Part shown: positions 34,283 to 64,000 of the stretch, piece after piece
How the letters are laid out: every line of letters starts with the position of its first letter
How positions within the stretch are numbered: the stretch's first letter is position 1
Assembly (NCBI RefSeq): GCF_013315695.1
Contig: NZ_CP054353.1
From: Escherichia coli
Lineage (GTDB): Bacteria > Pseudomonadota > Gammaproteobacteria > Enterobacterales > Enterobacteriaceae
Reading direction: 5' to 3' (one strand)
DNA length: 64,000 nt
Translations under genes and position numbers: made by a program
Notes under the pieces: generated by a model
The model's input: the letters and a program-made list of their open reading frames with translations, nothing else
What the model was told of the DNA's origin: nothing
Database searches by the model: none

Positions 34283-35067
<785 letters not shown>

Positions 35068-48380: not shown

Positions 48381-49304
48381 TTATTCACTCATCGCATCGC
48401 GCCAGATCTTGTCAACGATACGTTGCGCCAGCACTGCCTGTTCGCCGGCGGTTTGCGGAACTGTCTGATTTTGCACGCATTCAATGAAGTGCCGCGCACA
48501 GCCGACAAATCCACGTTGCTCAAGCGTACTCTGCCAACCAGGAATCGGTTTATGCACTACGCCCTGCCCGCGCTCCTCACGCCATTCGCGCATATCCGTA
48601 ATGTCGATGAGCGCACCGTCAGTCACGGCCTGCACGGTTTCACGCTGACTTCCGGCACGGCGATGCATACAGGTGGTGATCTGCAAAGGACCGGCCGAAA
48701 AATGGTGCTCGGCAAACAGCATTTCGCCAGCGTCATTAGTCAGTAGCGTACCGCCATCCAGAGAGGCTTTACCGCCCGACAACCACAGCACGGTATCCAC
48801 CACATGCAGATAATCATCCAGCAACGTGAAATAAAGATCGTGTGGCCCGACGCTATTGCTACGATGTTTATCCATTCTTAGCGAGGCTGCGGTGGCGAGT
48901 TGCTTTTTTAACTCACCGTAGAGTGGTGCGAAACGACGGTTAAAACCGACCATCAACGTCAGTTTTTTCCGCGCCGCCAGTTCCACCAGCCGTTCAGCAT
49001 CGCGCAGATTTTCTGCCAGCGGTTTATCGACACAGACATGTACCCCCGCATTGAGTAACGTACTGACCACGTCAAAGTGGCTGGCGGTGCTGGAATGCAC
49101 AAAAACCGCATCGCAACTGGCGGAAAGGCTGGATAACGAATCGGCATAAGGAATGCGCCAGCTTTCACAAATTGGCAGGGCTTTCGCGCGCGTAGGCGAC
49201 CAGGCTCCTTGTAACATCCAGTCAGACGCTGCCGCCAGCACCGGTAACCATGCTTTTTGCGCGATGCCGCCTAACCCCACTACGCCGATACGTAATTTTT
49301 TCAC
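48381..49304 (-). CDS. yceM: Gfo/Idh/MocA-family oxidoreductase YceM (MviM)
   Basis: ORF trimmed to GTG 49304 (MKKLRIGVVGLGGIAQKAWLPVL...), 307 aa. Confidence 0.9.
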   Translation of the reverse strand: MKKLRIGVVGLGGIAQKAWLPVLAAASDWMLQGAWSPTRAKALPICESWRIPYADSLSSLSASCDAVFVHSSTASHFDVVSTLLNAGVHVCVDKPLAENLRDAERLVELAARKKLTLMVGFNRRFAPLYGELKKQLATAASLRMDKHRSNSVGPHDLYFTLLDDYLHVVDTVLWLSGGKASLDGGTLLTNDAGEMLFAEHHFSAGPLQITTCMHRRAGSQRETVQAVTDGALIDITDMREWREERGQGVVHKPIPGWQSTLEQRGFVGCARHFIECVQNQTVPQTAGEQAVLAQRIVDKIWRDAMSE

Positions 49305-52836: not shown

Positions 52837-53397
52837 ATGAACAAGTTTTTATTTGCCGCTGCATTGATCGTCAGTGGCCTGCTCGTTGGCTGTAACCAAC
52901 TCACCCAATACACCATCACCGAACAAGAAATTAACCAGTCGCTTGCGAAACATAATAATTTCTCAAAAGATATCGGTTTACCCGGCGTGGCTGACGCCCA
53001 TATTGTTCTGACAAACCTGACCAGCCAAATTGGTCGCGAAGAGCCGAATAAGGTTACCCTAACCGGAGACGCCAATCTGGACATGAACTCCCTGTTCGGT
53101 AGCCAGAAAGCGACCATGAAACTGAAGCTGAAAGCGCTGCCCGTGTTTGATAAAGAAAAAGGCGCGATCTTCCTGAAAGAGATGGAAGTGGTCGATGCGA
53201 CGGTACAACCGGAAAAAATGCAAACGGTGATGCAAACGTTGCTCCCCTATTTGAACCAGGCATTACGCAATTACTTTAACCAGCAACCTGCTTACGTCCT
53301 GCGCGAAGATGGCAGCCAGGGCGAAGCAATGGCGAAGAAACTGGCGAAAGGCATTGAAGTGAAGCCAGGCGAAATTGTCATTCCGTTTACTGATTAA
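52837..53397 (+). CDS. yceB: Lipoprotein YceB
   Basis: ORF-track 52636 start trimmed to ATG 52837 (MNKFLFAAALIVSGLLVGC..., lipobox), 186 aa. Confidence 0.9.
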   Translation: MNKFLFAAALIVSGLLVGCNQLTQYTITEQEINQSLAKHNNFSKDIGLPGVADAHIVLTNLTSQIGREEPNKVTLTGDANLDMNSLFGSQKATMKLKLKALPVFDKEKGAIFLKEMEVVDATVQPEKMQTVMQTLLPYLNQALRNYFNQQPAYVLREDGSQGEAMAKKLAKGIEVKPGEIVIPFTD

Positions 53398-53403
53398 TCA
53401 CGA

Positions 53404-53429
53404 GGGCGCATTCGCGCCCTTTATTTTTC
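53404..53429 (+). terminator. yceB intrinsic terminator
   Basis: Stem gggcgc/gcgccc with loop attc, followed by tttattttt. Confidence 0.7.
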
Positions 53430-53435
53430 GTGCAA

Positions 53436-53502
53436 AGGAAAACGTTTCCGCTTATCCTTTGTGTCCGGCAAAAACATCCCTTCAGCCGGAGCATAGAGAT
53501 TA
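53436..53502 (+). promoter_or_regulatory. pyrC regulatory region: PurR-box-like palindrome and leader hairpin over the SD
   Basis: ggaaaacgtttcc (core AAACGTTT) at 53438..53450; inverted repeat tccggc...gccgga (53464..53489) overlapping GGAG before the ATG at 53503. Confidence 0.5.
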
Positions 53503-54549
53503 ATGACTGCACCATCCCAGGTATTAAAGATCCGCCGCCCAGACGACTGGCACCTTCACCTCCGCGATGGCGACATGTTAAAAACTGTCGTGCCGTATAC
53601 CAGCGAAATTTATGGACGGGCTATCGTAATGCCCAATCTGGCTCCGCCCGTGACCACTGTTGAGGCTGCCGTGGCGTATCGCCAGCGTATTCTTGACGCC
53701 GTACCTGCCGGGCACGATTTCACCCCATTGATGACCTGTTATTTAACAGATTCGCTGGATCCGAATGAGCTGGAGCGCGGATTTAACGAAGGCGTGTTCA
53801 CCGCTGCAAAACTTTACCCGGCAAACGCAACCACTAACTCCAGTCACGGCGTGACGTCAGTTGACGCAATCATGCCGGTATTAGAGCGCATGGAAAAAAT
53901 CGGTATGCCGCTACTGGTGCATGGTGAAGTGACACATGCAGATATCGACATTTTTGATCGTGAAGCGCGCTTTATAGAAAGCGTGATGGAACCGCTACGC
54001 CAGCGTCTGACTGCGCTGAAAGTCGTTTTTGAGCACATCACCACCAAAGATGCTGCCGACTATGTCCGTGACGGAAATGAACGGCTGGCTGCCACCATCA
54101 CTCCGCAGCATCTGATGTTTAACCGCAACCATATGCTGGTTGGTGGCGTGCGTCCGCACCTGTATTGTCTCCCCATCCTCAAACGCAATATTCACCAACA
54201 GGCATTGCGTGAACTGGTCGCCAGCGGTTTTAATCGAGTATTCCTCGGTACGGATTCTGCGCCGCATGCACGTCATCGCAAAGAGAGTAGCTGCGGCTGC
54301 GCGGGCTGCTTCAATGCCCCAACCGCGCTGGGCAGTTATGCTACCGTCTTTGAAGAGATGAATGCTTTGCAGCACTTTGAAGCATTCTGTTCTGTAAACG
54401 GCCCGCAGTTCTATGGCTTGCCGGTCAACGACACATTCATCGAACTGGTACGTGAAGAGCAACAGGTTGCTGAAAGCATCGCACTGACTGATGACACCCT
54501 GGTGCCATTCCTCGCTGGGGAAACGGTACGCTGGTCCGTTAAACAATAA
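53503..54549 (+). CDS. pyrC: Dihydroorotase
   Basis: 348-aa [49 protein letters not shown]... Confidence 0.97.
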
Positions 54550-54585
54550 AAATCGTAGCTTCCTGTTGTCATTAGGTTATTTTAC

Positions 54586-54601
54586 CTGTATAAATAACCA
54601 G
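54586..54601 (+). promoter_or_regulatory. LexA (SOS) box upstream of dinI
   Basis: CTGTATAAATAACCAG matches CTG-N10-CAG, 22 bp upstream of the dinI ATG. Confidence 0.8.
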
Positions 54602-54622
54602 TATATTCAACAGGGGGCTATT

Positions 54623-54877
54623 ATGCGAATTGAAGTCACCATAGCGAAAACTTCTCCATTGCCAGCTGGGGCTATTGACGCCCTGGCAGGCGAACTTTCC
54701 CGCCGTATTCAGTATGCGTTTCCTGATAATGAAGGCCACGTATCGGTACGTTATGCCGCAGCGAATAATTTATCGGTTATTGGCGCGACAAAAGAAGATA
54801 AACAGCGCATTAGCAAATTCTCCAGGAAACGTGGGAAAGCGCCGATGACTGGTTTGTCAGCGAATAATATGCAGTGA
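54623..54877 (+). CDS. dinI: DNA-damage-inducible protein DinI, apparently with frameshifted C-terminus
   Basis: ATG 54623 gives MRIEVTIAKTSPLPAGAIDALAGELSRRIQYAFPDNEGHVSVRYAAANNLSVIGATKEDKQRIS then KFSRKRGKAPMTGLSANNMQ; the +1 frame reads ...QETWESADDWFVSE stop, matching the DinI C-terminus as I recall it. Confidence 0.8.
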   Translation: MRIEVTIAKTSPLPAGAIDALAGELSRRIQYAFPDNEGHVSVRYAAANNLSVIGATKEDKQRISKFSRKRGKAPMTGLSANNMQ

Positions 54878-54888
54878 TTTTTGTTTTT

Positions 54889-54911
54889 GCCGGGTCGCCC
54901 CGGCTTTTTTA
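54889..54911 (+). terminator. dinI intrinsic terminator
   Basis: Stem gccggg/cccggc with loop tcgc, followed by tttttt. Confidence 0.7.
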
Positions 54912-55156
54912 TTTTACTTGCGAATTGTGAGTACAAAATTTCTACACTTCCTCAAAATAATTGCACAATATGCTAAAAAAATATGAATGACATGCTGTTT
55001 TATTGTTCATATAAATCTTAAAAGCAGAAATTTATCTGTTCCCCCCTTTAAAAATTCGGTGAATACCCTTACTTATTGGTATACTGAAGTTGCTTCAGAT
55101 AAAAACGCATTGAACCTCGAATAACGTTGTCTAGTAACACGAATTAGGGGGCCATG

Positions 55157-55411
55157 ATGGAAAAAAATAATGAAGTCATTCAGACTCATCCGCTCGTAGG
55201 GTGGGACATCAGCACCGTTGATAGCTATGATGCGCTGATGTTGCGTTTGCACTACCAGACCCCAAATAAGTCCGAGCAGGAAGGGACTGAAGTTGGTCAG
55301 ACGCTCTGGTTAACCACTGATGTTGCCAGACAATTTATTTCGATATTAGAAGCAGGAATCGCCAAAATTGAATCCGGTGATTTCCCGGTAAACGAGTATC
55401 AGCGTCATTAA
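55157..55411 (+). CDS. bssS: Biofilm regulator BssS (YceP)
   Basis: 84-aa ORF MEKNNEVIQTHPLVGWDISTVDSYDALMLRLHYQTPNKSEQEG... Confidence 0.93.
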   Translation: MEKNNEVIQTHPLVGWDISTVDSYDALMLRLHYQTPNKSEQEGTEVGQTLWLTTDVARQFISILEAGIAKIESGDFPVNEYQRH

Positions 55412-55525
55412 CATGACATGACCATCCACCCAAAAGGCACCTCACCGGTGCCTTTACCATTTCTGGGTTGTATATCTGCATTCAGTTAATTACTCTGCTT
55501 AAACCATGAGAGCAGAGAGAAAAAA

Positions 55526-56644
55526 ATGAAATACGATCTCATCATTATTGGCAGCGGTTCCGTAGGCGCTGCCGCCGGGTATTATGCAACCCGCGCCGGT
55601 TTAAACGTGCTAATGACCGACGCCCATATGCCACCGCATCAACACGGCAGCCACCACGGCGATACGCGATTAATTCGCCATGCTTATGGTGAAGGTGAAA
55701 AGTATGTCCCGCTGGTCCTCCGCGCGCAAATGCTGTGGGATGAACTTTCCCGCCACAACGAAGATGATCCCATTTTTGTACGCTCTGGTGTCATTAACCT
55801 CGGTCCGGCTGACTCCGCATTTCTCGCCAACGTCGCCCACAGCGCCGAACAGTGGCAACTCAACGTTGAAAAGCTCGACGCGCAAGGGATTATGGCCCGC
55901 TGGCCAGAAATACGCGTCCCGGACAACTACATCGGTTTATTTGAAACTGATTCTGGTTTTTTGCGCAGCGAACTGGCGATTAAAACCTGGATCCAACTGG
56001 CGAAGGAAGCGGGCTGTGCGCAGCTGTTCAACTGCCCGGTCACCGCAATTCGTCATGACGATGATGGCGTAACTATTGAAACGGCTGACGGTGAGTATCA
56101 GGCGAAAAAAGCGATTGTCTGCGCGGGTACATGGGTAAAAGACCTACTCCCGGAGCTGCCTGTCCAGCCCGTACGCAAAGTATTTGCCTGGTATCAGGCC
56201 GATGGTCGCTATAGCGTGAAGAATAAATTCCCGGCATTTACCGGTGAGCTGCCCAATGGCGATCAATATTATGGTTTTCCGGCAGAAAACGACGCGTTGA
56301 AGATTGGCAAACATAACGGAGGCCAGGTTATCCATTCAGCGGATGAACGTGTTCCGTTTGCGGAAGTGGTCAGCGATGGTTCGGAAGCCTTCCCGTTCTT
56401 GCGCAATGTATTGCCGGGTATCGGTTGCTGCCTGTACGGCGCTGCCTGCACCTATGATAATTCGCCTGACGAAGATTTTATTATCGATACTCTACCCGCC
56501 CACGATAATACACTGCTCATTACCGGCCTGAGTGGGCACGGTTTTAAATTTGCGTCAGTTTTAGGGGAAATAGCTGCCGATTTTGCGCAAGACAAAAAAA
56601 GCGATTTTGATTTGACGCCATTCAGGCTTTCCCGCTTCCAATAA
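55526..56644 (+). CDS. solA: N-methyl-L-tryptophan oxidase SolA
   Basis: 372-aa [37 protein letters not shown]... (FAD-binding GxGxxG). Confidence 0.95.
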
Positions 56645-62706: not shown

Positions 62707-64000
62707 TTATTGCGAAGCCGCATCCGGTTTACGCAATGCCAGTGGATTGAGCTTTATCCCTTCGTAATAACTCACCCATGAAGAATATCTCTCAGGGGAA
62801 TTCCAGACGCGGAAATGCAGACGGGCCATCGTCACCGGATCGCTTAGCAGCACCAGGCGACGATCGCGATTCAGCTTCTCTGGCGTCTCGTTCAGCGCCT
62901 GTTCAACGTGGCGGTCACGGGCGATTTCCAGCACCTTACTGGCGCGGTGACGCGCGGTCGCCATTGCGGTTGCCAGAGCGTTGAATGACGGGTTAAACAC
63001 TGCGTGCATAAAACCATCATCAAGGGAGCGTTGACGGTTCATCTCAAGGAACCGATCGGTATCAACCAGCACCTGCGGCGGTGAATACTCTTCCGGGATC
63101 AGGAACAGTTTCCAGCGTTTGGTGCGCAGACCAACGGTGGCACGGCTGGAAATCACCGAAACAAACGGTGACAGGATCAACGAGAAGACAATCGGAGCCA
63201 GCCAGAACAGGAAACGCAGATCCAGCCACGCCATCCCAACAGCCCACACTAACCCTAACAGCAGCTGTGAGCCGTGGCGTTTGAACGCTTCACCCCAGGA
63301 AGTGGAGTCATCATCACGCTGCGGTGAATTCCACACCACTTCCCAGCCAAGGAACGCGCTGACGACGAAAACCGTATGGAACAGCATGCGTACCGGAGCC
63401 AGCAGCACGGAAAACAGCACTTCCAGCAGCAACGATAATGTAACGCGCCAGAAGCCGCCATATTCTTTCGTTCCTTTGCACCAAATAAGCAAAATGCTCA
63501 ATAGCTTTGGCAGGAACAACAGCACCATAGTCGAAGCAAAAAGTGCAATCGCCAGCTCAGGACGCCACTGCGGCCACACCGGGAACAACTGCCGTGGTTG
63601 CAGGAAGTATTGCGGTTCGGTCAACGCATGCACTACCTGCAATGCAGTAGAGAGCGCGAGGAACATAAACCACAGCGGAGCGGAGAGATAAGACATCACG
63701 CCCGTCAGGAACACCGCACGGTGAACCGGATGCATACCCTTCACCAGGAACAGACGGAAGTTCATCAGGTTACCGTGGCACCAGCGGCGGTCACGTTTTA
63801 GCTCATCAAGCAAGTTAGGCGGCAATTCTTCATAAGAACCCGGGAGATCGTAAGCAATCCACACCCCCCAACCTGCACGGCGCATCAACGCCGCTTCCAC
63901 GAAATCATGTGACAGGATTGAACCGGCAAAGGAACCTTCGCCCGGCAGCGGAGCCAGTGCGCAATGCTCGATAAACGGTTTCACGCGGATAATCGCGTTA
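62707..64000 (-). CDS. opgH: Glucans biosynthesis glucosyltransferase OpgH (MdoH), C-terminal part; start lies beyond the window
   Basis: Minus-strand reading frame open to the window edge; translation ...[34 protein letters not shown]... ending ...[10 protein letters not shown] matches OpgH C-terminus. Confidence 0.93.

Follow-up and report, generated by a model that had tools for sequence, protein, structure and literature searches.

The dinI gene in the 64,000-nucleotide stretch of Escherichia coli DNA analysed here (hereafter the window) ends in a sequence that does not belong to DinI, which raises two questions: was a base lost in the cells or in the sequencing record, and what could the resulting protein still do to RecA? 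At stoichiometric levels DinI stabilises RecA filaments, and at high levels it inhibits the cleavage of UmuD (PMC6590174); it also favours RecA storage structures, with 27% of cells containing such structures in a ΔdinI strain compared to 43% in the wild type (PMC6363387). The evidence presented here makes it highly probable that the window carries a genuine dinI deletion of single origin, most likely a loss-of-function allele with respect to the binding and stabilisation of RecA filaments.

The dinI reading frame and its surroundings

On the E. coli chromosome dinI is located between pyrC and bssS, in the order pyrC-dinI-bssS-solA, and the annotation of a sister strain and of relatives gives the gene of the window these same neighbours. 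The original prediction described a dinI frame that reads normally as far as ...TKEDKQRIS, continues as KFSRKRGKAPMTGLSANNMQ to a stop at 54877 and thereby loses the last 17 residues of DinI, whose true C-terminus would lie in the +1 frame with a stop at 54867. The list of open reading frames, the sequence itself and the translation of 54817-54867 agree with this description: Ser64 is encoded by AGC (54812-54814), residues 1-64 are those of the wild type, and residues 65-84 are out of frame. Its start coordinate had to be moved, since the PGAP feature and the arithmetic of the reading frame place the start codon at 54623 rather than 54624, where the frame would be wrong. The coordinates of the gene and its associated elements are collected in Table 1.

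Table 1. Features of the dinI locus, in window coordinates
Feature	Position	Strand	Description and basis
LexA (SOS) box CTGTATAAATAACCAG	54586..54601	+	Exact CTG-N10-CAG match, upstream of dinI
Frameshifted dinI open reading frame	54623..54877	+	84 codons plus TGA; list of open reading frames and sequence
Site of the 1-bp deletion	54814..54815	+	Alignments with MS 21-1 and AF3; 41-bp junction search
Out-of-frame tail KFSRKRGKAPMTGLSANNMQ with new stop	54815..54877	+	TGA stop at 54875-54877
Wild-type C-terminal remnant ILQETWESADDWFVSE with its stop	54817..54867	+	Translation; +1 frame, untranslated
Intrinsic terminator of dinI	54889..54914	+	GC-rich hairpin (54889-54904) followed by a T run

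A single G is absent between C54814 and A54815, which converts codon 65 from GAA to AAA and shifts the frame, so that residues 65-81 change from EILQETWESADDWFVSE to KFSRKRGKAPMTGLSANNMQ. The comparison with reference dinI alleles that had been recommended as a check gave this lone missing G in both cases: the intact allele of MS 21-1 differs from the window at one of 372 aligned columns, the G that is missing after ...CATTAGC, and the AF3 isolate (OZ547117), the nearest relative with an intact dinI, shows the gap at the identical place. The loss had been predicted near 54814, in agc(g)aaattc, and the alignments support it while fixing the exact gap at 54814/54815. The context of the missing base is C|AAA, without a homopolymer at the site. 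One gap in 372 columns and a +1 frame that still encodes the wild-type tail are what is expected of a frameshift pseudogene, and the ILQETWESADDWFVSE remnant is identical to the tail of the protein in PDB entries 1GHH and 7YWA.

The elements on either side of the gene are unaltered. The CTGTATAAATAACCAG box occurs once in the window, where no occurrence is expected by chance, and its columns show no difference between the window and the intact MS 21-1 allele, in accordance with the earlier statement that the LexA box is intact; as far as sequence can tell, the gene appears to remain under SOS regulation through this upstream box. The terminator is also the same as in MS 21-1, and the new stop codon falls 11 nt upstream of it. 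The base directly 3' of the LexA box (54602) is T in the window, in strain MSB1_4I (see below) and in MS 21-1, and C in AF3.

An Rfam search in and near dinI returned the PyrC leader (RF02372, 68.7 bits; 53453-53502, plus strand), which lies just upstream of pyrC as expected in E. coli, and no element within dinI. This result bears on the possibility of translational recoding, in which ribosomes would move back by one base close to the deletion, producing a near-wild-type DinI. The one point in favour of such recoding is that the +1 frame through the wild-type tail has stayed open; against it, AGC AAA TTC does not offer an X XXY YYZ slippery heptamer, dinI contains no Rfam element, and the intact allele of thousands of genomes needs no recoding. 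We therefore regard it as extremely improbable, and programmed frameshifting was rejected on the absence of a slippery site.

Elsewhere in the window, between flgL and rne (about 34283-35067, plus strand; annotation of the sister strain), a DUF1778 protein and a GNAT-family acetyltransferase are encoded with a 4-base overlap, a pair that looks like a type II toxin-antitoxin system of the GNAT/RHH kind.

A deletion inherited in one lineage

The 371-bp dinI region of the window was compared with 5,426 complete E. coli genomes, of which 5,417 contain the region at a coverage of at least 80%. It is 100% identical in one of them, strain MSB1_4I (NZ_LR898874.1), which was obtained from a rectal swab in Australia, and the other top matches align across 372 bases. 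A 41-bp query spanning the deletion junction, which does not seed on intact alleles, likewise matched one of the 5,426 genomes. The window and MSB1_4I differ by five substitutions (window positions 64, 16602, 46596, 49251 and 63745) and no indels in 64 kb, with no difference at all over 53060-56430; these five substitutions led us to reject the idea that both are the same record, and the strain of the window is a sister strain of MSB1_4I with the same dinI allele. The frameshift itself is already known, given that RefSeq flags the allele in MSB1_4I: the gene (JMX41_RS10130) is annotated by PGAP as a pseudogene, 'frameshifted'. A literature search on natural dinI frameshifts found nothing relevant. 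As to dinI itself, the nearest alleles are those of IAI39 and CE10. MSB1_4I, AF3, MS 21-1, OZ546925 and OZ546911 are grouped as a lineage of five genomes.

Additional carriers were found through the protein. In the assembly collection, 32 blocks list exactly this 84-aa product, and the 24 contigs that were read set the minimum number of carrier contigs at 24; they represent some ten further samples and belong to a single lineage. They come from ENA metagenome assemblies (including ERZ27238783, ERZ27238810, ERZ27238820, ERZ28637508 and ERZ28594645), from Logan read assemblies (including SRR5031201, SRR25445764 and ERR4229482) and from NCBI genomes, although the accessions of several metagenome samples run consecutively, and these samples may share one study or host. 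Identity to the window is 99.9-100% among the carriers and drops to 99.0% for the next E. coli lineage; this difference indicates that the deletion probably arose once and that the carriers form one clade, judged on flanks of 6-20 kb rather than on a whole-genome tree. The carriers also differ among themselves: at position 49251 the window shares a T with three ERZ272387xx/88xx contigs where MSB1_4I, SRR5031201 and AF3 have a C, and private SNPs are present in other carriers. Such nested SNPs are the pattern produced by inheritance in a diversifying clade. Over 6.5 kb, the carrier contig scaffold_11018 of ERZ28594645 has six substitutions relative to the window, including four T>G changes, which could mean either that this carrier is a more distant one or that the metagenome scaffold, being of low coverage, contains errors.

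The original prediction had left two options, a strain-specific variant or an assembly error in which base-calling or polishing removed a G that the cells do have. Two observations lend the second option some support. In MSB1_4I the sequence at window position 63745 is CTAGG, compared to the Dcm site CCAGG in the window and AF3 (this CTAGG could be a methylation-related long-read error or a real SNP), and artefactual frameshifted DinI proteins do occur in databases. However, the deletion recurs in short-read metagenome assemblies (k111 contigs), in Logan assemblies and in NCBI genomes from separate projects, it lies outside any homopolymer, it is limited to one haplotype background, and it is accompanied by no further indel across 25-64 kb. 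The window differs from AF3 by six substitutions and one gap, the dinI G, in 25 kb; in the 24 contigs read, pyrC, bssS and solA are full-length with zero gaps relative to the window; and dinI is the only pseudogene among the approximately 66 coding sequences annotated over the 64 kb in the sister genome. The deletion is thus reproduced across independent assemblies and technologies without surrounding indel noise. An assembly or sequencing error is very improbable on this evidence and was rejected, and the agreement between independent assemblies establishes that the deletion is real and inherited. The variant option therefore stands, except that the allele is specific to a lineage rather than to a strain.

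The artefacts known for this gene look different. Clustered with the product at 90% identity are other 84-aa proteins named DinI that likewise end in the -1 frame (for example XPE44083.1, which is labelled Shigella flexneri, and MFP1451888.1); in these the tail reads ...KKINSALAKFSRKRGKAPMTGLSANNMQ and KKINSALAKFSRKRGK... and the underlying deletion is a second one, in an A4 run at the equivalent of window position 54790. At the loci of these entries single bases are missing at a density of 8-26 per 3.2 kb, almost always from homopolymers, and pyrC and solA are broken as well; the entries are most likely long-read artefacts deposited as proteins. The idea that dinI has been inactivated recurrently in nature, as a sign of selection, was accordingly rejected, the other frameshifted forms being artefacts of homopolymer deletion. 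The same entries bear on the observation that had been named as a refutation of the frameshift, namely database DinI proteins ending in ...KFSRKRGKAPMTGLSANNMQ. Such proteins formally exist, some representing the allele of the window and others the A4-run deletion, yet they do not refute the frameshift, since every one of them derives from the same gene read in the -1 frame; the consensus tail of the DinI family is EILQETWESADDWF.

Probable consequences for the interaction with RecA

The cryo-EM structure of the RecA-DinI complex (PDB 7YWA) showed that F203 of the RecA L2 loop enters a DinI pocket formed by L13, L21, W71, W77 and F78, that E24, E69 and D76 of DinI lie opposite K232, R243 and K245 of RecA, and that substitution of any of these eight DinI residues weakens filament stabilisation (PMC9926225). 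The earlier suggestion that the acidic C-terminus of DinI contacts RecA is backed by this work. The frameshift replaces five of the eight contact residues (by position, E69K, W71G, D76T, W77G and F78L), that is, three of the five residues of the F203 pocket and two of the three acidic residues, while L13, L21 and E24 are retained in the 84-aa product. A complete C-terminal helix carrying the EILQETWESADDWF segment is consequently missing, with K, G, T, G and L at positions 69, 71, 76, 77 and 78. The net charge of the tail changes from -6 in the wild type to +5, and the pI of the protein from 4.7 to 10.2.

The lost segment is also the best conserved one. In an alignment of 42 diverse full-length DinI homologues, obtained from a search of 1.84 billion representatives, residues 65-78 have a mean identity to the E. 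coli residue of 0.68 compared to 0.39 for residues 1-64, and W77 is conserved in 98% of the homologues. The product nevertheless still belongs to the DinI family by curated cut-off: it scores 132.3 bits against NCBIfam NF007893 (cut-off 111), with residues 1-65 only aligned of 81 profile positions, whereas wild-type DinI scores 178.2 bits over 1-81; with Pfam PF06183 the product reaches 62.1 bits over model positions 1-50 of 63 and the wild type 101.8 bits over 1-63 of 63. AlphaFold2 models built from the same alignment give the wild type a pLDDT of 93 and a helix at 57-77, whereas in the mutant the helix ends at residue 69 and residues 73-84 fall below a pLDDT of 50, although AlphaFold2 is a weak guide to the effects of mutations.

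We propose that one deletion of a G in dinI was inherited by a small E. coli lineage that would comprise the strain of the window, MSB1_4I and several strains represented in gut metagenomes and read sets. The gene would probably still be transcribed upon DNA damage, because the LexA operator, the start codon and the terminator are unchanged. Translation would depart from the DinI frame at codon 65, and the product would retain the beta-alpha-beta-beta portion at the N-terminus and the initial turns of the C-terminal helix, would be without the conserved EILQETWESADDWF and would gain a basic tail predicted to be disordered. The RecA-binding groove and the acidic patch would then not be formed, making the allele effectively a dinI null. 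The contact residues and their conservation make it likely that RecA binding is lost in this allele, and a residual interaction may persist through residues 1-64, in which L13, L21 and E24 are intact. A search of MSB1_4I with blastn (11-base words) found dinI in one place only and no second copy, diverged DinI-like genes of prophages being beyond the reach of a comparison at the DNA level. The expected phenotype would be mild, consisting of small changes in SOS timing and in the processing of UmuD.

The window and MSB1_4I have diverged by about 8 × 10^-5 per site, which suggests that the allele has persisted for decades, as a rough figure based on typical E. coli substitution rates and open to recombination. 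This persistence fits a mild phenotype; in a clade that has diversified, it fits neutrality and also a retained or new function. The latter would require that the 64-residue core with its basic tail keeps partial RecA binding or gains an activity, such as nucleic-acid binding or dominant interference with RecA, and that the allele is kept since SOS timing is altered. The intact LexA box, start codon and terminator, the three retained contact residues, the endurance of the allele while its carriers gained SNPs, and the lack of a second disrupting dinI mutation in any carrier are all consistent with such a function. On the other hand, the tail is no more than the conserved sequence read in the -1 frame, with disorder predicted for it, and it takes only one substitution among the lost residues to weaken activity (PMC9926225). 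No other part of the family is as well conserved as the lost segment, and no spread past one rare lineage (1 of 5,426 complete genomes) is apparent; moreover, the allele arose too recently for the absence of further decay to be very informative. A functional variant is for these reasons unlikely, and we consider it a shade more doubtful still that an SOS-inducible truncated DinI with a basic tail is a selected variant that changes SOS timing in this human-associated lineage. If that were true, a RecA modulator would have been lost or altered in nature, a rare event, and the change would have persisted in the wild; UmuD might then be processed faster with an increase in damage-induced mutagenesis, for example, or prophage induction might be altered.

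Significance and comparison with known DinI proteins

The preferred reading, a probable loss of RecA-filament binding, makes the locus an ordinary, real and lineage-restricted frameshift pseudogene of dinI. It matters little past its correct annotation, other than as a clean case, provided by nature, of what is probably a dinI null allele in human-associated E. coli. Given that dinI is near-universal among the 5,426 complete E. coli genomes, the carrier lineage could serve as a natural knockout for studying, outside K-12, the share of DinI in SOS timing, in UmuD processing and in RecA storage structures. Additionally, the locus provides a worked example of how a real frameshift is told apart from long-read homopolymer artefacts, which have entered protein databases as DinI.

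Three known forms can be set beside the allele of the window. E. coli DinI (81 aa; NMR structure 1GHH, cryo-EM structure 7YWA, families NF007893 and PF06183) is encoded at the same locus behind the same LexA box and is identical over residues 1-64; the window product differs from it in the replacement of residues 65-81, in the loss of W71, W77, F78, E69 and D76, and in its length of 84 rather than 81 aa. The 84-aa entries with the A4-run deletion (XPE44083.1) share the -1 frame tail and the 90% cluster with the window product, but derive from a different deletion. JMX41_RS10130 of MSB1_4I, finally, carries the identical deletion and is the same allele, in a genome that differs from the window by five substitutions in 64 kb.
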